Positions 6,850 to 25,178 are shown, numbered from the stretch's first letter. The stretch: 64,000 bases of DNA from Bryobacterales bacterium (GCA_963422375.2 OY729427.2:1216001-1280000), one strand, 5' to 3'. Notes: generated from the letters alone by a model not told the origin. A program made the numbers and translations.

Positions 6850-6936
6850 GCCCGGGTGGCGAAACTGGTAGACGCAACGGACTTAAAATCCGTAGTCCGT
6901 CAGGACGTGTGGGTTCGAATCCCACCCCGGGTACCA
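6850..6936 (+). tRNA. tRNA-Leu(TAA)
   Basis: GCCCGGG/CCCGGGT acceptor stem, ACGGA-CTTAAAA-TCCGT anticodon arm, long variable arm, GGTTCGAATCC T-arm, encoded CCA. Confidence 0.97.
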
Positions 6937-7516
6937 CGGCACGCCCCGTCACGAGACCGGGGCGGCGGCTGGCGGTCCGAGTCGAGAGACTCCGGATCCT
7001 GACCGTTACCGCACTTCCCCGCCCCGGCAGTTTCCACCGAATTTCGACGCCGCTGCGGGCAGTCGCACGTGGCGGGAGGGTTGCAATCACGCTGGCCTCA
7101 GACATCCCGAAGCCCGCTCCTTGGACTCTGCCCGCTACGTGTCGCGAGCCACCTCTTCTACCAAGACATTCGTCTTCGGCAAGTGGACGCAGCAAGTGGA
7201 CGCAGCGAAGCGTTTGTCGGGTCGCCCATTCGTGACGCACGCAGCAATCAGTCACCGAATCGTCAACGGGCCCGGCCAGAGATCGCGATTCAACAATTCG
7301 GGCAATCCTCGAGGCGTCTCGCAACACCCCGCCCTCCCGCTGGTCTCAGACGAGTCACCTCATGTGCGACGTCCCGAATCAGGCGGCCACGGAAAGGCTG
7401 CGCTTGGCATTCACAACGCCAAGACATTCCAATATGGCTGAACTCCGATTGGGATATCGAGCGGGACGAGACGACGACCCGCTGGCACGACGCCCTTGCT
7501 TTGATTTCATTGTGTA

Positions 7517-8563
7517 CGGCCGACCAAGCCCCGCGCCATGCGCCGCATCTGTTCCGCCGTTGTTCCGCCGTGTCGCAGTCGCGGTCGTTGCGCCGTCCCG
7601 CGAACTCCGTGAGGTAGCGGCCGAGATGACGGACGCTCATCCGGTGATAGGTGCCGTACAGGCCGCGCTTGAACAGGGACCGAAACGATTCGATGCCGTT
7701 CGTATGCGCCGCCCCGCGCACGTACTCGCCGCCGGAGTGCCTGACGGCTTCGTGCGGGAACTCCGCCATGCCGGCGCAGGCCGCCGCCTCGTCGGAGCGA
7801 ACCTGCGCGCCCGGCGCGACCCGGCCGCGCACGAAGCCCTGCAGGTCGCCCTTGGCGGTGCCCGGCAGCGGCCGCGCGGCCACTGCGTTCGTGGCGCGGT
7901 CCCGCGCCCCCGCCACCGGGGTCTTGCCGACGAGCCCGCGCCCGGCGCGGGCCCTCTTGCTCTCGTGCCGGTTGCGTTCCTTGCCGCCGACGTAGGTCTC
8001 GTCCACCTCCACCGGGCCGGCGAACGGGCCCTGATCCCGCTCCCGGCACGCGCGGATGCGGTGCGCCAGGTGCCAGGCCGACTTCCGGCTGACGCCCGGG
8101 TCGCGGTGCAGCTTCATGCTCGAGACGCCCTTGATGCCGGTGGTCAGCAGGAACAGGGCGACGGCCCGGGTGCGGTAGCCGAGCTTGGTGTCGGCCATCA
8201 CGCTGCCGGTGCGCACGGAAAAGCGCTTGCCGCAGCCGCGGCAACGGTACGGCATCGAAGGGTGGGCCGTGCCGGACTGCACGCTGGAGCCGCGGCAGTG
8301 GGGGCATACCGGACCGTCGGGCCAGCGCATGGAGGCGAACCACTTTTCCGCGGATTCGTCATCGCGGAACATGGCGATCACTTCGATCAATGTGATGCCT
8401 TTACGGAACCACTTTCCGGGACCTGATTTCTTCATTTACGGCATCCCCTACTGGAACTATTCTACCAAAAAACACCACAGAATGTAAACGGAAAATCGGA
8501 GGAAATATGAAATCTTATTATGGCTTGATAATTTGCCTACTTGATTCCCTCGGCACTCCGATA
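7517..8563 (-). mobile_element. IS1595-family element copy 1; right end missing, left TIR interrupted (remainder at 10549-10555 and 24892-24902)
   Basis: Transposase from 8435 with Zn ribbon CPHC..CRGC, VEVDETY, SDE, HTNGIES; near-identical to 10694-11650. Confidence 0.9.
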
Positions 8564-10548
8564 GCCGAGTAGGAGGGGTCGTTGCCGAGCCCCTCCCCTC
8601 ACAGACCCGAGCGTGTGCGTCTAACGCACTCGGTTCCTCGGATGGCAGGTTCGCTCAAGCGAATAGCGGAGCGGTCATGGCGGGCCGGACGCGGGCCGCG
8701 GCAGGGGGTGCCGTCGCAGGAGTTCCTGCATCCGGTTCCAGTTCAGGCGCGATTTCCGGCTGCGTCGCGACAGCCACTTCCGCCAAATCCGAACGACTTG
8801 GCAGTGGAAGCTCGACAGCCGCGCGCTGTTGCCCCGGAGCCCGTAGTAGTTCCCGTGCCCCGCAGCACGCTCGCCAAGTGCTCGCACTGCCGCTGCACCG
8901 CGTCGTGCCGGTGCCTGCGGCACCAGTCGTTCACGGTCCGCAGGGCGCGCGCGAGGCGGCTCCGGGCGGTGGACTGGCGCACGACAGGGTAACCCTTCCG
9001 CGACCGCGCCCAGTAATGGGTGAAGCCGAGGAAATCGAACGTCGCGCCCTTCCCGCGCTTCCGGAGTCGGCGCGGTCGGAAGTCCAGGTACCGTGTCTTG
9101 TCCGGGTGGAGCCGCAGCCCGTACCGCTCGAAGCGCTTGGCCAGCACGGCCAGCACGCGCCGGCCGTCCCGGTCGTGCTCGAAGAGCAGCACGGCGGCGT
9201 CGGCGTAGCGCACCAGCAGGCACCGCTCTTGCAGGCGCGGCTTCGCCTCCCGCTCGAACCATGCATCCAGCACGTGGTGCAGGTACAGGTTCGCCAGCAG
9301 GGGGCTGATCACGCCGCCTTGCGGGGTGCCTTGCCCGGTTCGTTGCAGGACGCCCTCCTCGAGCACCCCGGCCTTGAGCCATTTGTCCAGCATCCGCCGG
9401 ACCACTCCGTCCTTGATCCGCAGGTCGAGGAACTCCCGCAAGTGCTTGTGCGGGATCGTGTCGAAGTATTTCGACACGTCCGCGTCGATCACCCATTGCA
9501 GCCCTGCCCGCGCGCCTGCCCGCACTGCGTGCAAGGCGTCATGGGCGGAGCGGCCCGGGCGGAACCCGTGCGAGCAAGGCAGGAAATCCGCCTCGCATAC
9601 CGGTTCCAGCAGCATCGCGATCGCTCTCTGCGCCACCTTGTCCTCGAACGTGGGGATGCCCAGCGGTCGCGTCGTGCCGTCCGCCTTGGGGATGTTGCGC
9701 CGTCGCACCGGCGGCGCTCAGTAGCTCCCGGACTTGATCCGGCCCAGGAGGTCCGACAGGTTGGCCTCCAAGTCCTTTTCGTAGTCCGAGGCCGTCACGC
9801 CGTCGATGCCCGGCGCGCCGTCCTTGCGCGTCAGCCGGTACGCCTCCTGCATCCATGCGAGGTCGATGCAGCGGTGCAGCGTCTTGAACGCCCATGCGGA
9901 GTGCTCCCGCGCCTGTGCGGCTATCCATTGTCTTGCGTGTACGTGTTCGCGGAACTCATGGTTTCCTCCAGCGTTTCCTTCCCATGGTTCTGTCCATCCG
10001 GCGCCCCCCTTCCCTTGGACGGGTCCCGGTTCCCCGCCGTCGCCAGTACTATGCGGGCGCTACGACTCCCTGCGCTGCATCCCCTCGACTTATTGCTTCG
10101 CCAGCCGGTACCACGCCGCGCCTGCTCGTTCGCTCCCGATCCCCCGCAGACAGGGGCGGGCCCGGATCCGTGGGGTTGGCCGCGATCCGTCTTCCGGCCG
10201 TTTTGCATGGACAGTGCAGGGCCTCCCAGGTTCCCCGGCGAGCCTTCCCGTGGCTATGCGGACGTTCTCTGACCCCGGACGACCCGTTGCGCCTCGCCCT
10301 TGGCGGCGCTTCCGGCGCGGCCCCCGCTATAACAAAAACGAAGGCGTCGACATTGAGGATTTCGAGGCTCCATAGCGTCGCTTTGCCACCCGCTGTGTAC
10401 GCTTCACGACGCGCGTTGCCACGCGCCATGCAACACTCGCTCCCGGCTGGCGGGCTGCGCCTCTGCCGGGCAGGTGTCGAACCTGCTGGCTCGCGGTGCA
10501 AGGTTTCAACTCATCGCATCCTCCTTGCCAGGGCTTGGCCTGGCGCAA
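8564..10548 (-). mobile_element. Group II intron (class E-like, no endonuclease domain seen), degenerate
   Basis: 5' end TTGCG at 10548. Domain V GAACCGAGTGCGTTAGACGCACACGCTCGGGTC and domain VI ending CCTACTCGGC at 8564. Removing the intron restores the IS TIR sequence GATA|TATAATT. Confidence 0.88.
8675..9960 (-). pseudogene. ltrA: Group II intron reverse transcriptase/maturase, inactivated
   Basis: APGIDG, RPLGIPTFEDK, GFRPGRSAH, GTPQGG and FDFLGFTH motifs present. In-frame TGA at 9718-9720, YADD changed to YADA, and frameshifts near both ends. Confidence 0.9.
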
Positions 10549-10555
10549 TATAATT

Positions 10556-12072
10556 GGGAATTATATATCTGAGTGCCGAGGGAATCAAGTCAGCAAATTA
10601 TCAAGCCATTATAAGATTTCATATTTCTTCCGATTTTCCGTTGACATTCTGTGGTATTTATTGGTAGAATAGTTCCAGTAAGGGATATCGTAAATGAAGA
10701 AATCAGGTCCCGGAAAGTGGTTCCGTAAAGGCATCACATTGATCGAAGTGATCGCCATGTTCCGCGATGACGAATCCGCGGAAAAGTGGTTCGCCTCCAT
10801 GCGCTGGCCCGACGGTCCGGTATGCCCCCACTGCCGCGGCTCCAGCGTGCAGTCCGGCACGGCCCACCCTTCGATGCCGTACCGTTGCCGCGGCTGCGGC
10901 AAGCGCTTTTCCGTGCGCACCGGCAGCGTGATGGCCGACACCAAGCTCGGCTACCGCACCCGGGCCGTCGCCCTGTTCCTGCCGACCACCGGCATCAAGG
11001 GCGTCTCGAGCATGAAGCTGCACCGCGACCCGGGCGTCAGCCGGAAGTCGGCCTGGCACTTGGCGCACCGCATCCGCGCGTGCCGGGAGCGGGATCAGGG
11101 CCTGTTCGCCGGCCCGGTGGAGGTGGACGAGACCTACGTCGGCGGCAAGGAACGCAACCGGCACGAGAGCAAGAGGGCCCGCGCCGGGCGCGGGCTCGTC
11201 GGCAAGACCCCGGTGGCGGGGGCGCGGGACCGCGCCACGAACGCAGTGGCCGCGCGGCCGCTGCCGGGCACCGCCAAGGGCGACCTGCAGGGCTTCGTGC
11301 GCGGCCGGGTCGCGCCGGGCGCGCAGGTTCGCTCCGACGAGGCGGCGGCCTGCGCCGGCATGGCGGAGTTCCCGCACGAAGCCGTCAGGCACTCCGGCGG
11401 CGAGTACGTGCGCGGGGCGGCGCATACGAACGGCATCGAATCGTTTCGGTCCCTGTTCAAGCGCGGCCTGTACGGCACCTATCACCGGATGAGCGTCCGT
11501 CATCTCGGCCGCTACCTCACGGAGTTCGCGGGACGGTGCAACGACCGCGACTGCGACACGGCGGAACGGATGCGGCGCATGGCGCGGGGCTTGGTCGGCC
11601 GGACGCTGACCTGCCGGCAGCTGACCGGCAAGGCCGCGGTCGCGGCCTGAGCGGCGCCCGCCGCGCTGAGCGCGGCAGCCCGCTGCGGGCGCGCGCTTCA
11701 CGCTCGGTACGAGGGGCGCACCGGATCCGGCATGCCCCGGCGCGACCCCAGTCCGGTCCGGACCGTCCATGCAGGCCGTCGAGCGCCGGGGATCCGCTGT
11801 CTTCGGCCCTCGCAGGGCCTGCAAGCGGCTTGCAAGGCGTGCCCTGCCACCGCCAACCGGGTTTCACTGGGGCAACCGGGGCATGCGAGGCGGCCTCTCT
11901 AGTCCCTTCCTCGTCCAATCCGCTGGCAGGCTCGATTCAGATACGATCCCACACCCCACCCCTCTGTGCCCGCCGCGGCCGCACTCGAATGACCCCAGCT
12001 CGACACCCACCTCCCTGCTCACAGCAGTTCTAGTCGGATATGGCGTTGTCGGCACTCAGATATATAATTCCC
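10556..12072 (+). mobile_element. IS1595-family element copy 2 (1517 bp, both TIRs); transposase 10694-11650
   Basis: TIR GGGAATTATATATCTGAGTGCCGA at both ends; 318-aa DDE transposase ORF. Confidence 0.95.
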
Positions 12073-12352
12073 TAAAGAAAACCCGATGCCCGCCGAAACA
12101 TGCTCGGAACCTGGTTTCACGATGTGGCATTCCGATATCGGTGCGATCGTCAAAGCAGATATTGGCAAGGATGAGTGGGCCGAATTCCGCGCAGAGGCCG
12201 ACAAGCGTTATGGTCATGCTGGCGGCCTACGCAAGAATGCACTCCACATCGGCGCCAGCCTAGCCTTCGCCTGGGAAGACGGAAGACAGTCGAACAGCCT
12301 CGCACAGGTTTGTGCCGCCATCCTGAACCCGCACAACTACGTGTCCGAATGA
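12073..12352 (+). pseudogene. C-terminal remnant of a gene truncated by IS1595, possibly an OLD/TOPRIM-type nuclease
   Basis: Reading frame runs from the IS end to a stop. The stretch ...YGHAGGLRKNALHIGASLAFAWEDG... resembles OLD-family C-termini (recollection, not searched). Confidence 0.35.
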
Positions 12353-12436
12353 GGCGGCAGAAGCTCAACCAGTCGATATCCTGGCGGCGAGGAGGGTCTG
12401 CCCGACAAGGACTTCAGGGGGACTGGCCAGGCAGAA

Positions 12437-14585
12437 TTACGGGTCACATCCAGGCCAGCTTGTTCCGGTCGAGGCGTCTTGTCTGCCTCCGTTTTTCGCC
12501 AGCTCGTTGGGCGACGGCTTGGCCAGCGAGCCAATGTCCCGTGTCGATCCGTGTCCCGTCCAGTTCCACCGGGGCCATCTGCTGGCTCTGCCCGGTCCGG
12601 CAGCCTGGACCGGTCTGCCGTCGCGGCGGGGTCGAGCGGATCGTCCGGGGCACGATGCGGTTGTCCACAACATGCGACCAGTCGAGCTCCCTGCCGCCTC
12701 CGCCGTCGTCCGCCTCATCCGGCAGCGGCGGCGGCTCGGCGCTGTATCCCATGGCGCGGGCGATGACGGTCGCCGCCTGTGAGGCGGCGTCGCGCAGTGC
12801 GCCGTCGTCGGATGGGCGTAGATGGCGGTGGTCTCGCGCTGGCGGTGCCCGAGCAGCCGCCCGACGGTGGTGAGCCCGACGCCGTTCATGACACCCTGCG
12901 AGGCCCACGTGTGCCGGCAGTCGTGGATGCGAAGGCCCGGGCAGTCCGGCTTCTTCGCGGACGCCCACCCAGAACGTGTAAAGGCGATCCGACGTCAGGT
13001 CCTCAGGGAACACTCGCGCCGCGCCTTCGGTCCGTGGCAAGGCCGCGAGCAGCCGCGCTGCTTCCGGCCCGAGCCAGATCGTGCGCGGCCCGGTCTTGGT
13101 GTCTTCGAGCCGCGCGCTCGCGCCGTCCTCGCCCAGCTCGCCGATTTCGTCCCACTTGAGGTCGATGACTTCGGAGAGCCGCGCCCCAGTGAGGGTCAGC
13201 AGGCGGATGGCGGCAACCGGCCAAGGGTGCTCCTCACGGTGTCGGTCCAAGACCGTTCCGAGACGCTCCAGCTCCGCGTGATCGAGATATCGGGCGACGG
13301 GCCTGCGCGGGTTCCTGACGATGTTGGCGCAGGCGTCGGGGACGCCCTCGTCCAGCTCTCCCCACTGGCGGGCGGAGGCGAGCATGGCGCGCAGGATCTC
13401 GAAGGCGCGGTTGGCCGCGCCGGGCTTGTCCGTGCTCGCCGCGTCGAACCATGCCGAGACCCGCACATGGTCGATGGCGTCGTTGACGATGCCGGAGATG
13501 CGTCCCGCCGCCTCGCGGACGTGCTCGTCGGCGAGATGGGCGTAGCGCTCGGTGGAGGCGACATCGGCATGGCCGAGCAGGCGGCCTACGGTGTAGAGGT
13601 CGAGGCCGCTCATCACGGCGTGGGAGGCGAACGTGTGTCGGCAGTCGTGGATGCGCACCTCGTCAAGCCCGGCGAGTTTGCGCAGCTTCTGCCAGCGCAG
13701 GCCGAGGTCCTTCATCGGGCCGTCGCCCGTCCTGTTCGGGAAGAGGAACCGCCCCTCGCGCGGCAGGCCGTTCAGGACGGCCCGTGCGGGCGGCGGAAGC
13801 TGGATCGCCTTCGGCCCGGTCTTCGAGTCAGGCAGGACGGCGCGGGCGCCGCGTATCCAGTCCCATCTGAGGCCCGTGATCTCGGAGGATCGCGCGCCGG
13901 TGAACAGCAGCAGCCGGATCGCGGCGGCGGCCTGCCGGTCCTCGGCGTGATCCAGTACGAAGCCGAGGCGCTTCAGCTCGTCCAGCGAGAGGAAGCGCTC
14001 GCGCGGGGTCGTTTTGTAGCGGCGCATGTTGCGGCAGGGGTTCGAGCCCTGGGGACGAAGGTCCCACAGCTCGGCCTGCCGCATCATGACGGAGAGCACC
14101 GGCAGGGTCCGGTTGGCGTTGCCGGGCGTGCCGCTCATGGAGTCGAACCAGCGCCGCACATCGGCGCGGTCGACCTCCGGGACGCGCATATTGCCAAAGA
14201 AGGGGATGAGATGGCGGTCGATCAGATGGCGGTTGCCTTCCCGCGTGGACGGTTTCCACCGGCGCCCTTGGCGGCGCATGAACTCCGGCACGAAGTCGGC
14301 GAACAGCGGGTCGGCCTGGCGCTCGGCGTTCGCGGCCGCAATGGTCGCGAGGGCTTTGTCTCTCGCCTCGGCGGCGGTCATTTCGTCCGCGGTGCCGAGG
14401 ACGATGTTCTTCGCACCGAACTGGTGCACGACACGGACGAAGAAGGTCTTCGCGCCGCCCGGGAAAACCCGGAAGCCGAACTTCGGCAGGTCGATGTCAT
14501 AGACGGCGAGGCCGCGCGCACCGGGTTTGTGTTCCCTGAAGGTGCGCCGCAGCGCACGCTCGTTGATGGTCGTGTGGATGGGCAT
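12437..14585 (-). pseudogene. Two tandem tyrosine recombinases fused by deletion; the second is frameshifted
   Basis: First integrase is complete (arm-binding N-terminus, TGARSSE, RIHDCRHT, LLGH, ERYAH). It joins a second catalytic core (TGARLSE; HDCRHT and LLGH..IYAH in shifted frames). Confidence 0.85.
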
Positions 14586-15084
14586 GGCCGCGTCTCCGTT
14601 GTCTGTTCCCTCGGGCGCCGCCCGCTCCAAGGGAACGGAACGGCGGATTTGGGGAGACGACGCGGCCCGCGCGGGGGATCTAGGCCAGAGGCTGAATCCG
14701 GCCTATCCCCCTATCATGTAATGGAAAACGTCCGGTGAAGGCGGACCGGTCGGGTCTCGCTCCATGCACCGTCGGTGCGTGTGGTGTGAGAACCACGCGC
14801 CGAAGGGCGTCCAGATCGCGCTTCCTGACCGCTCAATCCGTCGGGTGATACTTGCGGAGACAGTCCCCGAACCGCCGCGTGGCTTCCAGGCGGCACTATA
14901 GGAAGCACGAGGTAACAGATCAATGCATGAAGGCGTGCGCACCGGCGGCATCATTTACTCGGCCCGCACTGTCGGCGGCGGTGCCGGCTCGCACGTGACC
15001 GCCGCTGAGCAGTGGCCGCCGCACACGTTCCCGCTGCGCAGGATCGAGCCGTGCACACGTTGCCGCTCCGCAGCGTTGCCGCCC

Positions 15085-15225
15085 GCCGCGCCGGGCTTTC
15101 GGCTGCATCCCCTGAAGGGCAACCGTGCGGGCCAGTGGAGCGTCCGCGTCTCGGGCAACTGGCGCGTGGTGTTCCGCTTCTAGGACGGCGAGGCCGTGGA
15201 CGTGGACCTGATCGACTACCACGGA
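15085..15225 (+). pseudogene. higB: HigB (plasmid maintenance killer) toxin remnant
   Basis: PGFRLHPLKGNRAGQWSVRVSGNWRVVFRF*DGEAVDVDLIDYH with TAG at 15181-15183; N-terminus missing. Confidence 0.85.
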
Positions 15226-15243
15226 CCGGAGGGAGTGCTGACC

Positions 15244-15558
15244 ATGAACGACATTGCGAACGATCGCGTCGGCCCGATGCAGAACCCGCCGCACTTGGGC
15301 GAACTCATCCGCGAGAGCATGGACGATGTGGGCTGGGACGTGACCGAGACGGCGGCGCGGCTCGGTTGCGAGCGCGGAACGCTGTCGCGGCTGCTGAACG
15401 GCAAGGCGGGAGTGTCCGCGAACATGGCGCTGTCTTTGGAGGACATCGGCTGGGGCACCGCCGAGCACTGGATGCGGATGCAGGCGAGCTACGAGCTTGC
15501 GCAGGCGCGTCGCGAGAGGGTCGCCGCCGAACGGCGTGCGGGCGCGCTGCACGCATGA
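15244..15558 (+). CDS. higA: HigA antitoxin (HTH XRE)
   Basis: MQNPPHLGELIRE..LSRLLNGKAGVSANMAL..WMRMQASYEL. Confidence 0.9.
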   Translation: MNDIANDRVGPMQNPPHLGELIRESMDDVGWDVTETAARLGCERGTLSRLLNGKAGVSANMALSLEDIGWGTAEHWMRMQASYELAQARRERVAAERRAGALHA

Positions 15559-15673
15559 TCGTTTATCGCGCCATCGTGGACGGACGAGCAACTGATCCGG
15601 CGGCTTCCCTTCATCCATTTCCAACCAATTGCACATCGTCCGGTGCTCGGCGCAGAGCGGGCGGCGCGGTCTG

Positions 15674-18490
15674 ATGCGCTTGTCATGGAACGAGGTGCGC
15701 GTCCGCGCCGCCGCCTTCGCGGAGGATTGGAAAGACGCGGCCTACGAGAAGGGCGAGACGCAGAGTTTCTACAACGCCTTCTTCGACGTGTTCGGGGTGC
15801 GGCGTCGGAACGTCGCGCGATACGAGGCTCACGTCGCGAAGCTCGACAACCGCTCGGGCTTCATCGACCTGTTCTGGCCGGGCGTGCTGCTCGTCGAACA
15901 GAAGAGCGCCGGGCGCGATCTCCGCAAAGCGTACGAACAGGCCGGGGAGTATTTCGACGCGCTGCCGGAACGCGAGCGCCCGCGCTTCATCCTGGTGAGC
16001 GACTTCCAGACCTTCGAGCTTCACGATCTTGACGAGGGCGAGACAGTCGTCTTCCCGCTTGCAGACCTGCCGGCGCATGCCGAGTCGTTCGGCTTCATTC
16101 TCGGGGTGCAGCGCCGGACGTTCTGCGACCAGGACCCAGCTAACATCGAAGCGGCCGAGTTGGTCGGGCGTCTGCACGATGCGCTCGCCGATGCCGGACA
16201 CCGGGGTCACGATCTGGAACGTTTCCTCGTGCGGATGGTGTTCTGCATGTTCGCCGACGACACCGGGGTATTCGAGCCGCGCGATATCTTCCTCGACTTC
16301 GTCGAAACGCGCACCAGGGAGGACGGGGCGGATCTCGGGCCGTGGCTCGCGCAACTGTTCGAGGTGCTCGATACGCCGGAGGACGAACGCGCCGCGACGC
16401 TCGACGAGAACCTGGCACGGTTCCCCTACGTCAACGGCGACCTGTTCGAGGGGCATCTGCGGACGTTTTCGTTCGACGCGGCGATGCGCAGGGCGTTGCT
16501 CGATGCTTGCCGCTTCGACTGGTCGAGTATCTCGCCCGCGATTTTCGGCGCGCTCTTCCAGTCGGTGATGGACCCGGCGGAACGCCGGGCGCAGGGGGCG
16601 CACTACACGACCGAGAAGAATATCCTCAAGGTGATCGAGCCGCTGTTCATGGACGACCTGCGCACCGAGTTCGAGCGGGTGCGCAAGCGCCGTGGCCGGC
16701 TCGCGGCGCTCCGCCAGTTCCAGGCGAAGCTCGGCGGCCTGACGTTCTTCGACCCGGCCTGCGGCTGCGGCAACTTCCTCATCATCGCCTACCGGGAATT
16801 GCGGCTGCTGGAAATTGAGGTCATCGGCGAGATACGGAACGAGACCGCTGCGACGGGTCAGACGGTACTCGATGCGGCGTGGCAGTCAGTGGTGGACGTA
16901 GACCAGTTCTACGGGATCGAGCTTGGCGAGTTCCCGGCCCGCATCGCGGAGACCGCGCTGTGGATGATGGACCACATCATGAACAACCGGTTGAGCCTGG
17001 AGTTCGGCCAGACCTTCGTTCGCATTCCGCTGGAGAAGTCGCCTCACATCGTCCATGGCGATTCGCTGGAAATGAACTGGTCCGGTCTGCTGCCATCGGG
17101 CGATTGCTCCTTCGTGCTGGGCAATCCGCCATTCGTGGGCGCGAAGTACCAGACGGCGGAGCAGCGCGCGCAGGTGCGCGGCATTGCGGCGCTCGGTAGG
17201 AGCGGCGGCACGCTCGATTACGTCGCCGCGTGGTTCATCAAGGCGGGAGAATATCTGAAGGGCAGCCGCGCTCGGATCGGCTTTGTCGCGACCAACTCCA
17301 TCACGCAGGGCGAGCAGGTCGCGCAGATATGGCCGGCGCTGTTCGGGCGCTGCAAGCTGGGGATCGCCTTCGCGCATCGGACCTTCGCATGGGGTTCGGA
17401 CGCGCGCGGGAAGGCGCATGTGCATGTCGTCATTCTCGGCCTCGACCGGCGCAAGGCCGCGCGAGCCGAGAAGCGGTTGTTCAGCTATCCCGATATCAAC
17501 GGCGACCCGGAAGAGAGCAGCCATGGCGCGCTGTCGCCGTACCTGTTCGATGCAGGCGGGCTGTCCGACCCGCATCTGGTGGTGCGGGAGGAAAACGCGC
17601 CGATCAACGGCATGGGCCGATTGATTATCGGCTCCAAGCCCATCGACGGAGGCAACTTCATCTTCGACACGGCGGGACGCGATGCGTTTCTGGAAGCCGA
17701 ACCGGAGGCCGCGCCGTGGCTCCGACCGTTCATCGGGGCACGGGAATACCTGCAGGGAGGCGAGCGCTGGATTCTGGCGTTGCACGATGCACCGCCTGAA
17801 GTTCTTGCGCGGCTACCGGGAGTGCGGGAGCGAATCGCCGCCGTCCGCGCCTACCGCGATGCCAGCAAGAGCGCGCCGACGCGGAAGCTCGCGGCGACGC
17901 CGACGCTCTACCACGTCAACGTTATCCCGACCACACCATTTCTGGTGATTCCGAAGGTCAGTTCGGAGCGGCGCGAATACGTGCCGGTGGGTTGGCTGGA
18001 GCCGCCGACCGTCCCCAGCGATCTGGTGTTCGTCCTTCAGGACGCTTCGCTGGTCGATTTCGCCCTCCTGACCTCGGCCATGCACATGGCGTGGCTGCGC
18101 CACGTCGGCGGGCGGCTGAAGAGCGACTACCGCTATTCCATCGGCCTCGTCTACAACACCTTCCCGACACCGCCCGAAGGCGCGGACCTGTCGAAGCTGG
18201 CACCGCTCGCCCAAGCCGTGCTCGACGCCCGCGCTGCACACCCCAACGCGACGCTCGCCGAGCTCTACGCCCCCGACCTCATGCCGCCCACCCTGCGCCG
18301 CGCCCACCAAGCCCTCGACCGCGCCGTGGACCGCCTCTATCGGCGCGTTGGATTCGCTTCCGAGCGCGAGCGAGTGGAGCATCTGTTCGGTCTGTATGAG
18401 AAGATGATGTCTCCGCTGGAAGCGGGGACGAGAACACGTTCGAGACGCCGGACAAAGATCAAGCGAATGGAGCAAGGGACAACCTCATGA
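15674..18490 (+). CDS. MmeI-like type IIL restriction-modification enzyme (nuclease-N6 MTase-TRD)
   Basis: N-terminal IDLFWPG..VEQKS (PD-ExK), GAHYT, FDPACGCGNF (motif I), GNPPF (motif IV), GGRLKSDYRYS and YNTFP; ORF uninterrupted. Confidence 0.92.
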   Translation: MRLSWNEVRVRAAAFAEDWKDAAYEKGETQSFYNAFFDVFGVRRRNVARYEAHVAKLDNRSGFIDLFWPGVLLVEQKSAGRDLRKAYEQAGEYFDALPERERPRFILVSDFQTFELHDLDEGETVVFPLADLPAHAESFGFILGVQRRTFCDQDPANIEAAELVGRLHDALADAGHRGHDLERFLVRMVFCMFADDTGVFEPRDIFLDFVETRTREDGADLGPWLAQLFEVLDTPEDERAATLDENLARFPYVNGDLFEGHLRTFSFDAAMRRALLDACRFDWSSISPAIFGALFQSVMDPAERRAQGAHYTTEKNILKVIEPLFMDDLRTEFERVRKRRGRLAALRQFQAKLGGLTFFDPACGCGNFLIIAYRELRLLEIEVIGEIRNETAATGQTVLDAAWQSVVDVDQFYGIELGEFPARIAETALWMMDHIMNNRLSLEFGQTFVRIPLEKSPHIVHGDSLEMNWSGLLPSGDCSFVLGNPPFVGAKYQTAEQRAQVRGIAALGRSGGTLDYVAAWFIKAGEYLKGSRARIGFVATNSITQGEQVAQIWPALFGRCKLGIAFAHRTFAWGSDARGKAHVHVVILGLDRRKAARAEKRLFSYPDINGDPEESSHGALSPYLFDAGGLSDPHLVVREENAPINGMGRLIIGSKPIDGGNFIFDTAGRDAFLEAEPEAAPWLRPFIGAREYLQGGERWILALHDAPPEVLARLPGVRERIAAVRAYRDASKSAPTRKLAATPTLYHVNVIPTTPFLVIPKVSSERREYVPVGWLEPPTVPSDLVFVLQDASLVDFALLTSAMHMAWLRHVGGRLKSDYRYSIGLVYNTFPTPPEGADLSKLAPLAQAVLDARAAHPNATLAELYAPDLMPPTLRRAHQALDRAVDRLYRRVGFASERERVEHLFGLYEKMMSPLEAGTRTRSRRRTKIKRMEQGTTS

Positions 18491-18596
18491 CGGGACATGA
18501 TGCTTTTCAAGCGGTTGCCGCCTATACCAATCGACAATCTGAAGATACATTGATCACCCGCATCCGAATCGGCTCATCCATCGAAGGAAGGAACCA

Positions 18597-18954
18597 ATGA
18601 TCGACGTACTTTCCAGACCTGTCAGTGAAATCACCATCGGCAACATCCGAGCGCTGATCGAATCCAAGATTCCCGAAATCGAGCAGGTTGAATGCAAGGA
18701 AACACTACCCGCTAAGCAGGGTGAAGATCCGTGGATGTCCGGCAAGAATAGGATCGAATGCTACGCAAAATACAAGATCCTTAAAGAGGTCGTTGCCTTT
18801 GCCAATGCTTACGGAGGGGTCCTGCTGTTGGATATCCAAGAATCCAGCACAAAGCTATCGGCAGCTGCAGGAATCAACTCGATCCCGAAATGCGTCGATT
18901 TAGCGGATCGTCTGAAGCTGGTGTTTCGCGATCGTGTGGAGCCTCCTCTTCCTG
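18597..18954 (+). pseudogene. Schlafen/AlbA_2 domain protein, truncated by an IS5 remnant
   Basis: EIEQVECKETL..ILKEVVAFANAYGGVLLL, the AlbA_2 signature. Confidence 0.8.
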
Positions 18955-19260
18955 GGGTGTGTTGACACAAGTGCCCCCGTGTGTGGTATGTTTTGCCCTT
19001 GTCGTCCCGGGCGGGAAAAGGGAGGAGAATCAAGCCGGTGGAACTTACGGAAGACCCATGCGGACACATCGCACCGATCCTCCCGAAGCAGCGTGGAAAC
19101 GTCAGTCTGTCGCATCTGCAAGTGCGCAACAAGATCCTCTACGTGGCGGAAAACGACTGCAAGTGGCGCGACCTGGCGCCGCGGTGCGGCAACTGGCACA
19201 CGGTCTACACACGGATGCATCGCTGGTCGAAGAGGGGCGTGCTCGAGCAACTGCAAAGAG
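18955..19260 (+). mobile_element. IS5-family remnant (left end plus DUF4096-type transposase N-terminus)
   Basis: End GGGTGTGTTGACAC; IAPILPKQRGNV..ILYVAENDCKWRDLAPRCGNWHTVYTRMHRW. Confidence 0.8.
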
Positions 19261-19261
19261 A

Positions 19262-19842
19262 CCGTCATCGTCGATGCGCTGCAGTTCAACGAAGCGTTCA
19301 GAGCCCTGCGTATCGATGCGGTTCGTCGAGATGTACGACGTCGGAAACGCAACATTCCTGTGGTGGACCTGCCGTGAAGATGCGGAAGAGGCGATCGACA
19401 CGAGTGTCGTCAGCCCGGCCGTCAGCCGAGCGATGAGCCATTTCCAAAACCGACTTCATGCCATGACGGAGAGGGCGGCTGAGGCGAGGAGCACACGTGA
19501 GGACATCACCGATGCACCCACCCCTTTCTCGGGTTTGTTGTGTAACGAATTCCGTGCTTTCGCCGCACGGTTAAACGCGAATGGCGTTTTCGTTGGCAAG
19601 CTGCGTGACCGTCAAATCGACCCAGATACCATGATGCCCGACTTTCGAAGACGGGTGGCAGACGAGCTGAAGGTGCCGCTTGATGTCGTGGTGGCGCACT
19701 TCGCTGCGCGTCCGGCAGCCCCAACCGAGCAGTTTTCAAAGCAGAAGGCAAGCCATCCACCGGTGCACAGCAAAGCTTCGAGGAGGCAGTACGAACCTCC
19801 GATCTGAACGAGGCTCAGCGGCAGTTCTTGTTGGAGTTCTGA
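19262..19842 (+). pseudogene. Frameshifted accessory gene(s) upstream of the ImmA-UvrD fusion
   Basis: Fragments ..SPAVSRAMSHFQNRL..FVGKLRDRQIDPDT..VVVAHF.. and, after a shift, AEGKPSTGAQQSFEEAVRTSDLNEAQRQFLLEF*, ending 4 bp before the helicase ATG. Confidence 0.55.
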
Positions 19843-19846
19843 TCTC

Positions 19847-22800
19847 ATGGATCCCTTCGAGCCGATCCGTTCCAAGGCAGTGGCGCTTCATGAGGAGTTG
19901 CACTCCGAGGGCAAAGGCCCGTTGGATCCGCTCGCTCTTGTCGAAGCTGCCGCAAGACACTGCGATCTGGACCTTGTATGGCTGTCGCAGGGTGACCCGG
20001 CACTGCAGGGCGCGCGAGCTTTATACGACGACCAAGGCGGAACGATCTGCTGCGAGGAGGGAGGAGGTACGGCAACCCGTGCGCTACTCGTCGCGCACGA
20101 ACTTGGACATTCCGAACTTCACGCTGGCCCCGCGATTTGCGCCAGTTCCGACATTAATCCCTCGCGGAGCACCGAGACCGCGCCATTTGGCCTGCAGCGT
20201 GTCGAGGACTATGCTGCGCGCGCATGGCGTGAACTTCAAGCCAATGTCTATGTGCGCGAACTACTGTTCCCGCGCGCCTTTGCTCGAGAACTTCACCTCG
20301 AGAACAGCCTGACCGCTGCAGAGATCGCCGACCGAACGAAACTTCCGGGGGCGCTAGTTCGGCAACAGTTGTTCGATACGTTGCTCCTGCCGACCATGGT
20401 AGTCGAAGATGAGGCCACACCCGAGATGCCGCACGTACGCAGGCCCGATCCGTCCCAAGAGCGCACGGCAATCCACCGCGGCAGGCCCTTTCTGTTGCAA
20501 GCAGGGCCGGGAACCGGCAAGACACGAACCTTGGTGAGGCGCGTGCTCTCACTGCTGGCTGAAGGCACCGATCCGGCCGCGATCCTTATTCTTACATTCT
20601 CCAATCGTGCTGCCGGCGAACTGTCGGAGCGACTGACTGCGGCTGTCCCGGACGCTGCGCCCAAACTCTGGATCGGAACGTTCCATGCCTTCGGTTTCGA
20701 TCTCGTGCGGCACTACCACGACAAGCTCGAACTCGCGCCTGATCCCTCACTGTTTGACCGCAGCGACGCAATCGAAGTCCTCGAAGACATCTTTCCCACG
20801 CTGCGTTGGTTCATTACCGCAACCTCTGGGATCCGGTGATGGTGCTCATGGACATCGTTAATGCAATCTCTCGCGCAAAGGATGAAATGGTCGGGCCGGA
20901 GCGCTACCGAGTGCTGGTGAAAGCGATGGAGGCGGAAGCGGTCGGTCGCGATGAGGAGGCGCGGATTGCGGCTGCAAAGTGTCTTGAAATCGCGGATATC
21001 TACGACCTTTATGAAGAGGCACTACGCAAACATGGTGGTGTGGACTTTGGCGACCTGATCATGCGCCCCACCCAGTTACTGGAAGACGATAAAGCCGTTC
21101 GCATTGGCGTGCAGCTCCGCCATCGGCACGTACTCGTCGATGAATATCAGGACGTAAATCGGGCCAGAGCACGTCTTCTGAAGACGGTGGCAGGAAATAG
21201 CAAGCGGCTTTGGGTCGTCGGCGATGCGCGACAGTCGATCTATCGATTTCGTGGCTCTTCCTCCGAAAATATGGCTCGGTTCGGCTCCGATTACCCTGAT
21301 TCTGTAACGGATCATCTGGGCGTCAACTATCGCTCGACCGAGCAGATCGTGCATAGCTTTGTCGCGGTGGCACCGCATATTGGCGCGTCGAACGACATGC
21401 TGACCCTCGAGTTGGAGGCTAATCGGAGGAAAGGACCAAGCCGTCCCGAGATCCGCCGTTTCGAGACGCTGAATGAGGAAGCCGAGGGCGTGGCGGCGAG
21501 TATCCGTCAACTTGAAGAAGCGGGGGTGAGGCTCCGCGACCAGGCGATCCTGTGTCGGACCAACCGGCGGCTGAACGAGATTGCCTCGGCACTGGAGATG
21601 CGCGGCATCCCCGTCCTTCACCTTGGCAGCTTGTTTGAGCGGGAAGAGGTTCGTGACCTGCTAGCCGTGCTTAGCTTAGCCGTCGACCCATTCGGCGACG
21701 CATTGGTTAGGGTCGGCGCGATGCCGCGATACGGTCTGATGCTGCAGCATGTGCACAATGTAAGCCGCTTTCTGCGGTCCCTTCAAGAACCCGCATTGGC
21801 GGGACTTGCGAAGGCGGGGCAAGCACCCGGCCTGTCGACATCGGGGCGGAAAGGCATCAAGCGCCTTGCCGCCGATCTGAACGGCCTGTGCTCAAGCACC
21901 AACGCCTGGAAGTTTCTCGCCATCTTTCTCTTCGATCATACGGACGTGGCCAAGGAGTTGGGCTGTGCGACATCCGTAATGGAGTGCATGCGTGCTGCGG
22001 CAGTCTGGCAATTCCTCAATCTTGTGCGCGAGCAGAGTCCGGTGGGGATGGGACTTCCGATACAGCGCACCCTCGATCGAGTGCGGCAGCTGGTGCTGTT
22101 GCCAGAGGAGCGCGACCTGCGACAAGTTCCAGCCGCAGCATTGCATCTCGACGCCGTTCGGTTGATGACCGTCCACGGCAGCAAGGGACTTGAATTCGAG
22201 GCTGTGCACCTCCCTGGACTGACGGTCGCGAGTTTCCCAAGTTCCAACCGCGGCGAGCGTTGTCCGCCGCCTAGGGACATGATCGATGGATCTGGCAATG
22301 CCTCGCCAAGGGAGGTAGCGAAGCGCGCACATATTGACGAGGAGGAATGCCTGTTTTTCGTGGCGCTGTCGTGCGCCCGGACACACCTCCGTCTCTACCA
22401 TGCGCGAAAGCATTCCAATGGAAGCAATCGCTCCCCGTCGTCATTTCTGAACTGGCTCTCCGGCCGGTATGTCCACGAGATGATCAACCCTCTCAAGCTC
22501 TCGCTTCCCACAAACACCCTGCGGATGCAGCCGGTCGAAGTCAGTTGGCCCACGGATTGGGCGGTGACGGACAGCCGTCTGGGCTCTTACGAGAAATGTC
22601 CACGACGCTTCTTCTATACGCATGCTCTGGGACTGGGCGGCGCTCGGAAGTCTACAGCGTTCTCACGTACGCATGATTGCCTTTACGACTTCCTGCGCTG
22701 GCTTGCCGATGCCCGGCGCATGGGCGAACCTGACTTGGACGAGGCGGAAACCGCCTTCGACGCCATCTGGCAAACTCGCGGGCCGGCAGAGCATGCCCTC

Positions 22801-23280
22801 GCCGCCGATTACCGCAGGCTCGCGTTCCGGCTGATCGCGGCTTTGCTCAAGGCGGGGGCTGGGCAAAGTTTCCACGACGCGCAACCCCTTGCCATCGACT
22901 TTCCCAACGGACGCGTACTTGTGGAGCCCAATGAATTGGCGGAAATGTCCGATGGCACCGTCATCATCCGCCTGGTTCGTACGGGCTACAAGCGGAGCGA
23001 CGAATACGACAGGCTGGAATACACCCTTTATCACCTTGCGGCCCAGAGTCAGTTTGGCGGCAACGCCATTGTGCAGGCGTTGCACTTGACCGACGAAACG
23101 CATGAGCCCGTTGTGATCAGCGGGACCAAGCTCGGCAACCGATGGAAGAAGAGCGATACCATGTTGAGCGGTATCGCCTCCGGCGAGTTTCCGCCGAAGG
23201 TAGACGCTGTGACCTGTCCACGGTGCCCTTACTTCTTCATTTGCCCCTCCGTGCCTAACGGCACCTTGTGGCTCGACTGA
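19847..23280 (+). pseudogene. ImmA/IrrE metallopeptidase + UvrD (SF1) helicase + PD-(D/E)XK-like nuclease fusion, split by one frameshift near 20805
   Basis: AHELGH (HExxH) and ELQAN; AGPGTGKT, TFSNRAA, TFHAF, VDEYQD, VVGDARQSIYRFRG, NYRS, MTVHGSKGLEF, EEECLFFVA; YEKCPRRFFY and terminal CPRCPYFFIC. Confidence 0.88.
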
Positions 23281-23374
23281 TTTCGTACGGAGTAGCCTTT
23301 CCGGGTTCCTGCTCTGCTGGCGATCAAGCCCGGGATTCACGATGGCTGTAGATACGTGACTGCCCGTAAATTTA

Positions 23375-24891
23375 GGGAATTATATATCTGAGTGCCGACA
23401 ACGCCATATCCGACTAGAACTGCTGTGAGCAGGGAGGTGGGTGTCGAGCTGGGGTCATGCGAGTGCGGCCGCGGCGGGCACAGAGGGGTGGGGGGTGGGA
23501 TCGTATCTGAATCGAGCCTGCCAGCGGATTGGACGAGGAAGGGACTGGAGAGGCCGCCTCGCATGCCCCGGTTGCCCCGGTGGAACCGGGTTGGCGGTGG
23601 CAGGGCACCCCTTGCAAGCCGCTTGCAGGCCCTGCGAGGGCCGAAGACAGCGGATCCCCGGCGCTCGACGGCCTGCATGGACGGTCCGGACCGGACCGGG
23701 GTCGCGCCAGGGCATTGCGGATCCGGTGCGCCCCTCGTACCGAGCGTGAAGAGCGCGTCCGCAGCGGGCTGCCGCGCTCAGCGCGGCGGGCGCCGCTCAG
23801 GCCGCGACCGCGGCCTTGCCGGTCAACTGCCGGCAGGTCAGCGTCCGGCCGACCAAGCCCCGCGCCATGCGCCGTATCTGTTCCGCCGTGTCGCAGTCGC
23901 GGTCGTTGTACCGTCCCGCGAACTCCGTGAGGTAGCGGCCGAGATGACGGACGCTCATCCGGTGATAGGTTCCGTACAGGCCGCGCTTGAACAGGGACCG
24001 GAACGATTCGATGCCGTTCGTATGCGCCGCCCCGCGCACGTACTCGCCGCCGGAGTGCCTGACGGCTTCGTGCGCGAACTCCGCCATGCCGGCGTAGGCC
24101 GCCGCCTCGTCGGAGCGGACCTGCGCGCCCGGCGCGACCCGGCCGCGCACGAAGCCCTGCAGGTCGCCCTTGGCGGTGCCCGGCAGCGGCCGCGCGGCCG
24201 CTGCGTTCGTGGCGCGGTCCCGCGCCCCCGCCACGGGCGTCTTGCCGACGGGCCCGCGCCCGGCGCGGGCCTTCTTCCTCTCGTGCTTGTTGCGTTCCTT
24301 GCCGCCGACGTAGGTCTCGTCCACCTCCACCGGGCCGGCGAACGGGCCCTGATCCCGCTCCCGGCACGCGCGGATGCGGTGCGCCAGGTGCCAGGCCGAC
24401 TTCCGGCTGATGCCTAGGTCGCGGTGCAGCTTCATGCTCGAGACGCCCTTGATGCCGGTGGTCAGCAGGAACAGGGCGACGGCCCGGGTGCGGTAGCCGA
24501 GCTTGGTGTCGGCCATCACGCTGCCGGCGCGCACCGAAAAGCGCTTGCCGCAGCCGCGGCAACGGTACGGCATCGAAGGGTGGGCCGCGTCGGACTGCAC
24601 GCTGGAGCCGCGGCAGCGGGGGCACGCGGGACCGTCCGGCCAGCGCATGGAGGCGAACCACTTTTCCGCGGATTCGTCATCGGGGAACATGGCGATCACT
24701 TCGATCAATGTGATGCCTTTACGGAACCACTTTCCGGGACCTGATTTCTTCATTTACGACATCCCCTACTGGAACTATTCTACCAAGAAAAACCACAGAA
24801 TATCAACGGAAATTCGGAAGAAATATGAAATCTTATAATGGCTTGATAATTTGCCGACTTGATTCCCTCGGCACTCAGATATATAATTCCC
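23375..24891 (-). mobile_element. IS1595-family element copy 3 (1517 bp, both TIRs); transposase 23797-24753
   Basis: Same TIRs and 318-aa transposase as copy 2, inverted. Confidence 0.95.
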
Positions 24892-25178
24892 ATATAATTC
24901 CCAATGAATACAGGGGGCTTCTGGTACGGCAGGTGTGACGGGGGCTGTGACACCCCCTGTGACACGGGACTCAGGGGCAGTCACAGGCTGTCACGGCATT
25001 CACGGCTCGATTTCCGGCTCCCGTGTCGTTCAGATGCCCGATGATCGGTTCTGTGATCCGGGTTGTCCAGCCGTTGCCAGGCGTCCCTACACCCTCTCGT
25101 CCGCGTGACCCCGTTCTGCCCGCCGTCTCTCCAGCAGCGGCCGTCCGGTAGCGCTTGGGATGCCGGCTGAACGGTTGC

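Follow-up and report, generated by a model that had tools for sequence, protein, structure and literature searches.

A degenerate class E-like group II intron inside the terminal inverted repeat of an IS1595 element, probably the remnant of a lineage that homed into IS1595-type ends

The window, i.e. the whole stretch of DNA that we have analysed, comprises 64,000 nucleotides from a Bryobacterales bacterium; the features of the locus under study, a group II intron located within the terminal inverted repeat (TIR) of an IS1595 copy, here called copy A, are listed in Table 1, together with two further copies, B and C. The transposase of copy B matches PF12760, PF12762 and NF033547 (Zn-ribbon and DDE_Tnp_IS1595), and that of copy A is 98% identical to it. 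The TIR of the host element is 23 bp long and fits ggnnatTAT, presumably the end signature of the ISNwi1 subgroup; the IS1595 family makes target duplications of 8 bp, matched by the 8-bp duplications that we have observed at IS1595-type insertions, and the partner duplication of copy A was looked for and not found. The seven further TIRs that an earlier note had counted in the window are recovered as seven matches, against none in 100 shuffles, and the bacterium's own genome holds 235 TIR-like sites (at most 3 mismatches to the 23-bp repeat). Some 600 bp separate a tRNA gene (6850-6933) from the end at which copy A is truncated.

Table 1. Features of the intron-split IS1595 locus and of the later insertion beside it, in window coordinates.
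Feature	Position	Strand	Remarks
Host IS1595 copy A	7514..8563	-	Retains left end and transposase gene (from 8435), lacks right end; 97.5% to neighbouring copy
3' exon	8551..8563	-	Inner TIR half, positions 11-23, one substitution
Group II intron, endonuclease-less, class E-like	8564..10548	-	1,985 nt, degenerate, sole genome copy
Domain V and domain VI	8564..8635	-	AAC triad, UUAGA loop, bulged A, terminal CGGC
Broken RT/maturase gene	8675..9959	-	Two frameshifts (near 9932, near 8860), stop 9718-9720, YADA; endonuclease domain absent
Domain I core, Rfam group-II-D1D4-6 (RF02005)	10263..10479	-	128.1 bits, gathering 49
Candidate EBS3	10316	-	G here, A in 13/15 aligned relatives; position from alignment
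EBS1 UGUUAU, d3 loop	10329..10334	-	Identified by covariation; delta U at 10335
EBS2 UCCU	10356..10359	-	Pairs with -11..-8 of 5' exon = TIR outer GGG and one flank base
Remnant 5' exon AATTATA	10549..10555	-	TIR positions 4-10; IBS1 = ATTATA
IS1595 copy B, complete	10556..12072	+	Left boundary of later 14.3-kb insertion
IS1595 copy C	23375..24891	-	Right boundary of later 14.3-kb insertion
Second 8-bp duplication copy and displaced GGG tip of copy A	24892..24902	-	Duplication copies 24892-24899 (this one) and 10548-10555 (first)

The intron interrupts the left TIR of copy A 10 bp from its end, at AATTATA^TATC; the junction is precise, with EBS/IBS pairing and without a duplication. A group II intron on the minus strand, placed exactly inside the TIR, is what the earlier note had proposed, and both points are confirmed, the former by the RF02005 match (128 bits), the RVT_1 and TIGR04416 matches of the RT, the AAC triad and the bulged A; the clean restoration of the TIR upon intron removal, claimed in the same place, holds for 20 of the 23 bp, with one substitution and with the terminal GGG displaced. 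Domains V (8635-8604) and VI take the expected fold, the 5-nt loop of domain V being narrowed by RNAfold to 3 nt through a U-A pair, and the bulged A of domain VI lies 7 nt before the 3' end of the intron. A candidate alpha' (GGCG, approximately 10298-10295), located in a terminal loop according to the Rfam alignment, is complementary to the CGCC of the 10457-10442 hairpin, with which it would pair; the fold of domain I as a whole was uninformative (z 0.76).

The intron begins with TTGCG and ends with CTACTCGGC, its ends having been set with the help of relatives whose flanks start in a base other than T; boundaries shifted by one base are excluded by the relatives that combine GTGCG/GAC ends with non-T flanks. 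These termini, which had been called non-canonical, are normal for the lineage, as all three alphaproteobacterial plasmid relatives share both. The idea that such ends are special was rejected: all 13 copies that start with G finish in AC and all 11 copies that start with T finish in GC, a pairing that accords with the contact between the first and the penultimate intron nucleotide. Judged by its ribozyme features and by the absence of an endonuclease, the intron appears to be class E-like (IIE or IIF features), and we take the maturase motif GH.YYG..GN to favour class E over class F. The class D C-terminal motif LX3AX3PXLF[V/A]HW is absent from the intact relatives examined; as for class C, its traits (no EBS2, a short EBS1, a site after a stem-loop) do not describe this intron, whose EBS2 and 6-nt EBS1 covary with the flank.

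The RT of the window copy, with its two frameshifts, one stop and YADA in place of YADD, is about 80% identical to its intact relatives, which by inspection stop shortly past the maturase region and have no endonuclease domain; an open frame with YADD is present in L062, L154 and L166. The RT ORF matches RVT_1 and TIGR04416, and for its 309-aa main piece RVT_1 alone scores above the cut-off, with TIGR04416 slightly below. Contigs of runs X1 and X5 have no listed difference at the RT lesions, which are thus probably real. Both intron junctions are crossed by a 2,074-nt contig of run X1, which shows 1 difference, and are also contained in two contigs of run X5, so that the junctions are no one-off assembly error; the contigs say nothing more, since either run may be the source sample. 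An apparent joint of 8563 to 10554 in run X5 was set aside, as it most likely derives from other, empty IS copies. Run X6, from another study, holds a close relative with EBS1 UGCAAU at 10329-10334 that differs where the window copy is broken. By blastn, the intron occurs once in its own genome, and a tblastn search of this genome for further copies returned one unrelated RT only (29%); a distant second RT-like stretch lies at G000:C2:2846448-2847041 (29% over 207 aa). The window intron is a dead copy, with a broken RT, and single against 235 free TIR-like sites.

The missing GGG of copy A is now found at 24900-24902, past a 14.3-kb insertion (10556-24891) that is flanked by the 8-bp duplication ATATAATT; since ATATAATT occurs on both sides, this block must have inserted in the tip of copy A. 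The original 5' flank offers EBS2 3 of 4 pairs and the present flank 0 of 4, from which we infer that the intron entered before the block. The order of events at the locus would then be the entry of the intron into the TIR of copy A, the entry of the IS1595-bounded block into the AT-rich tip and the decay of the intron. The block itself, bounded by IS1595 copies and by the 8-bp duplication, is a possible composite transposon, with an integrase (12444-14630), a HigB-like/HTH pair (14923-15558) and an MmeI-type restriction-modification gene (15629-18490) as its cargo. In G000, IS1595 copies apparently enter the AT-rich core of their own TIRs at several places (e.g. C1:1436793, C2:3624235 and C3:250089), and neighbouring IS1595 ends often have unmatched flanks, which suggests IS-mediated rearrangement.

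The recognition loops have been located by covariation: the hexamer past GCCUUCG-NNNU varies together with the final hexamer of the 5' exon, and a tetramer upstream of it varies with positions -11 to -8. In 18 hand-picked combinations of intron and flank, 106 of 108 EBS1 positions are paired (shuffle maximum 79), as are 57 of 72 EBS2 positions (shuffle maximum 53), values reached by none of 10,000 shuffles, an outcome that amounts to no probability, as the combinations are related. This covariation shows EBS1 to pair with positions -6 to -1 and EBS2 with positions -11 to -8, with the insertion at TIR position 10/11; the base at +1 is T in 20 of 25 sites, and the target, as read from these pairings, comprises the outer 10 bp of the TIR (GGGRATTAYA), a single base of the flank and, by preference, T at +1. 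In the window copy, the EBS1 sequence UGUUAU is paired with ATTATA at 5 of 6 positions, with one wobble and one U.T mismatch, and the closest relatives have UAUAAU or UGUAAU. The hairpin that the earlier note had described (10320-10326/10339-10345) is real and proves to be longer (10337-10345/10320-10328, loop UUUGUUAU). Its proposed EBS1, UAUAG (10327-10331), is out of register: it pairs 5/5 on paper, but two of its bases, the AG, sit in the stem, and its register fails among relatives.

Relatives are present in 25 of the 30 other genomes of the genus; 80 regions around their 5' ends were fetched and then 40 more, with at most 27 candidates scored per genome, so that the sets are incomplete. 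A loop pattern that is independent of the flanks retrieved 23 loci in genome contigs (22 labelled Bryobacterales, 1 labelled Dehalococcoidia) and 2 in metagenomes. The pattern and the fetched loci together yield 25 distinct insertions with two flanks, including L104, which has a deletion in the EBS1 region; 14 of these 25 lie in structurally confirmed IS1595-type ends, a count in which the sites are not independent, as 21 of the 25 come from 4 related genomes with near-identical copies within each. Eleven of the insertions are accompanied by a partner repeat and an identical 8-bp duplication (L058, L063, L064, L066, L083, L086 twice, L087, L088, L103 and L157) and three by a transposase or a partner TIR without a matched duplication (L001, L065 and L077); another three show the TIR motif alone (L059, L099 and L154), and eight occupy non-TIR look-alike sites (L060, L061, L062, L067, L068, L076, L098 and L104). 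Fifteen one-flank loci were excluded (L008, L049, L089, L109, L110, L113, L115, L116, L124, L125, L130, L131, L136, L165 and L166); in most of them the 5' flank resembles the tip, and L136 is followed on its 3' side by a TIR and a transposase. Copies in unrelated targets, which the earlier note had named as evidence against its reading, are thus represented by the eight look-alikes, as opposed to the 14 confirmed ends.

Both ends of such elements are used: in L086 the two ends of one element are occupied, with the duplication intact, in L058 the occupied end is downstream of the transposase, and in L001 and L157 it is the upstream end. The confirmed sites comprise 9 different inner-TIR sequences, and the transposases adjoining occupied ends are 27-76% identical; a scan for IS1595 transposases was negative for L063, for L103 and for the first 6 kb of L087 (L083 is outside the scan), so that these three count as IS1595-type on the strength of their ends alone. 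Many such types are represented by free ends in five genomes (13, 16, 52, 23 and 12 pattern matches, against 1-5 for the controls). Introns with the same two loops occur in 6 genomes of the genus, in another MAG and on two metagenome contigs, the full-length introns among them having 84-87% whole-intron identity, and in genome G001 near-identical copies (10 compared, differing at 0-2 of their first 1,000 nt) occupy different element types as well as non-IS sites. A pattern of the tip followed by the intron start matched 0 of 401 genomes of the phylum, among which the only member of the genus is the bacterium's own genome, with its displaced tip; among viral contigs, the 5' pattern returned 4 loci, none with signs of this intron lineage. 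The suggestion that the intron parasitises IS ends therefore draws its support from the relatives (insertions in TIRs, at both ends, with EBS1-flank covariation); in its own genome, with one dead copy and 235 free sites, the intron does not parasitise IS ends at present.

Several loci deserve separate mention. Seven near-identical copies of 4,867 nt in G001 (L059-L061, L064, L065, L067 and L068) have one 2.87-kb insertion of the RT gene in common, yet lie at different sites, and the intact 2,000-nt copy L062 could mobilise them in trans. L103/L153 (G045) is a 56-bp miniature element with two TIRs and an 8-bp duplication, with an intron in one end. L154, on a 27.7-kb contig titled Dehalococcoidia, encodes an RT that scarcely differs from the one of L062, and its target motif is also free in G001; either a recent transfer between phyla or mis-binning would account for it.

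In G001, 5 of 11 insertions lie in confirmed TIRs, compared with approximately 19 of 443 loose-match sites (p=5e-5), and at tight-match sites the enrichment is weak (3/7 vs 9/56, p=0.088; 4/7 with the motif-only site, p=0.015), the backgrounds having been counted by hand and the free-end numbers being a lower bound; the comparison of loose and tight matches indicates that base pairing alone suffices. A tree of domain I (40 rows, both EBS words masked) places 12 of 12 tip-reading rows inside one 15-row clade (support 94/91). The tip-reading label changes 4 times on the tree, and the tip-reading rows form a single group in 0% of the bootstrap trees, because 3 rows of the clade have other loops. 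L116, which lies outside this clade and lacks its 3' flank, has the same two EBS words, although in another stem.

The window intron is probably the fossil of a class E-like lineage that retrohomed into the outer 10 bp (GGGRATTAYA) common to many IS1595-type elements of the genus. Its homing mode, as predicted from the covariation, is ordinary retrohoming through EBS/IBS pairing: EBS2 and EBS1 read the tip of the TIR, and the insertion occurs at position 10/11, on the border between the conserved tip and the variable inner TIR, so that one guide fits many IS1595-type elements at both ends; owing to relaxed pairing, look-alike non-IS sites are also entered. By analogy with the known endonuclease-less introns RmInt1 and RmInt2, the intron would reverse splice into single-stranded DNA at the replication fork, after which the nascent strand would prime the reverse transcription step. 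A 2-kb block between the tip and the inner TIR would disable that end, which splicing could not mend in DNA, and the transposase gene, here 128 bp downstream, would stay intact; immobilisation of the intron-split IS copies is plausible.

Among the sister introns, IS targets are the rule and IS ends a frequent subset. Sisters with EBS1 GCAAUU are inserted at a distance of 2 nt from an IS4-like tip, in an element (weak family matches) that has 49 free sites in G021 and a 10-bp duplication; sisters with EBS1 UCAGAC occupy the exact tip of a 2,664-bp Transposase_29 element; in a third group, from G009, where 9 of 9 sites are at contig ends, the 5' motif corresponds to the end of an IS21 in G001, 19 nt in; and L123 occupies the tip of a miniature element 354 bp long (L226). 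A partner test on upstream flanks only was negative at 16 of 18 sister sites. L126 was rejected as an end target, its flank being internal to the IS4-like element, as were L114 (flank single-copy in each of two genomes) and L121 (two-copy flank) as repeated-end targets. Of the three plasmid relatives that were fetched, two are situated approximately 1 kb away from accessory genes of IS66 and seem to be internal to the element. Head-to-tail arrays of sisters occur in G001 (L069, L071, L072 and L074, period 2,010 bp) and in G021 (L084, L085, L093, L096 and L097); an occupied 5' junction remains a target because the intron begins with T. G021 also holds ORF-less introns of approximately 750 nt (L078, L081, L084 and L085), one of them in an IS1595 TIR, which presumably moved in trans, and twintrons, in which a more distant group II intron lies approximately 40 nt into many copies (L086-L088 and L092-L097); the same distant second intron is found in L217 (G016), at the inner edge of the TIR of the Transposase_29 element. 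An 800-aa open frame with a DruA-like domain (L221:4450-6849) precedes an IS4-family transposase.

The sister targets bear on a broader reading, which we regard as possible, if on balance unlikely: a class E-like radiation within one genus would repeatedly have retargeted to the ends of abundant IS (IS1595, IS4-like, IS21, Transposase_29), its members acting as RNA-guided transposition suppressors whose end preference is selected and perhaps helped by a protein. The opposite reading, that there is no selected specialisation and that the loops match an AT-rich 10-mer which, in a genome of 67% G+C, occurs mostly at IS1595 ends, would make the association a by-product of availability; we hold this to be improbable. 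In its favour, TIRs make up 200 of the 216 GGGAATTATA sites and 209 of the 252 GGGRATTRYA sites of the bacterium's own genome, the tight-match enrichment in G001 is non-significant on confirmed sites, 8 of the 25 insertions lie outside TIRs, and the sisters retarget freely, even to an internal IS4-like site. What such availability fails to explain is that the two loops persist through 6 genomes, the MAG and the two metagenome contigs when the sisters have changed theirs, and that L116 carries the same words in a different stem, outside the clade.

A role for the intron protein in recognising IS ends beyond pairing, for example as transposase-bound ends or transposition intermediates, in the manner of class C introns at terminators or attC, is suggested by the four end targets of unrelated families in one genus; however, pairing explains every case with a readable EBS, the distance from the tip (10 nt for IS1595, 2 nt for the IS4-like element, none for Transposase_29, 19 nt for IS21) and the orientation vary between lineages, the upstream-partner test failed at 16 of 18 other sister sites, and 2 of 4 further flank motifs are single- or two-copy, so that we give this proposal little credence. 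Rare homing followed by spread chiefly as cargo, with an intron-split IS that still transposes or is copied by recombination, could explain single pairs in which the same TIR type is occupied at the same place (L063/L066 in G001, L083/L087 in G021); as the main route it is largely refuted and scarcely credible, given the near-identical copies in different element types and non-IS sites of G001 and the two occupied ends of L086. Retrohoming by base pairing into the shared tip is the reading that we prefer.

If so, the lineage provides a second, apparently independent case of introns that target transposon ends, through the most constrained 10 bp of an end common to a whole IS family, where one RNA guide would serve for many elements; as the tip is both constrained and family-wide, the IS could not easily mutate away from it. 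Free ends differ widely, from 235 here, with a dead intron, to 13 pattern matches in G001, with an intact copy, a comparison that combines different patterns in few genomes and is a correlation only. The old idea that bacterial introns restrain the spread of IS becomes testable on natural material, and the loops with their flanks form a natural set of EBS/IBS covariation for a little-studied intron class.

The targeting of TIRs, which the earlier note had found less familiar, has a published precedent: in the available part of PMC4615759, all copies of RmInt2, a class D intron of Sinorhizobium meliloti GR4, are reported in the inverted repeats of ISRm17, left and right as in the window lineage; this siting is said to double the targets of RmInt2, and its head-to-tail copies are explained by EBS3 pairing with the first base of the intron. 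With respect to IIE and IIF introns, the features described in the accessible portion of PMC3753933 (a class scheme is given in PMC3552965, of which a part was likewise available), i.e. a IIB-like ribozyme that has EBS1-3, an alpha' placed in a terminal loop, a 5-nt domain V loop and no endonuclease, are shared by the window intron, and that portion contains no IS-end target for them. RmInt1 in ISRm2011-2 and introns in transposase genes likewise use IS as safe, multicopy targets, and IS-targeting introns have been proposed to limit IS spread, according to the part of PMC5894124 at hand. Inside a transposase gene, an intron would prevent production of the protein but could be bypassed by splicing, whereas an intron in a TIR would break the DNA end and leave the gene intact. 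Class C introns at terminators or attC, which together with homing make up the three specificities named in the available text of PMC4424553, are similarly tied to a repeated DNA motif; according to that text they lack EBS2 and use DNA structure, in contrast to the covarying EBS2 and 6-nt EBS1 of the window intron, which point to standard homing. Among mostly non-subscription literature, no title or abstract opening mentions an intron in IS1595 ends. Compared with RmInt2, again as far as the available part of PMC4615759 goes, the window lineage lacks the class D C-terminal motif, has 14-17 of 25 insertions in TIRs where RmInt2 has all copies in inverted repeats, and is known from sequence alone where the mobility of RmInt2 was shown experimentally; RmInt2 is tied to one IS in one strain, and the window lineage to a tip shared across transposases 27-76% alike in at least 6 genomes, with sisters on other IS families. 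As far as we have checked, the new elements are thus another intron class, IS1595 as the host family, a family-wide target and the repeated use of IS ends by the sisters.
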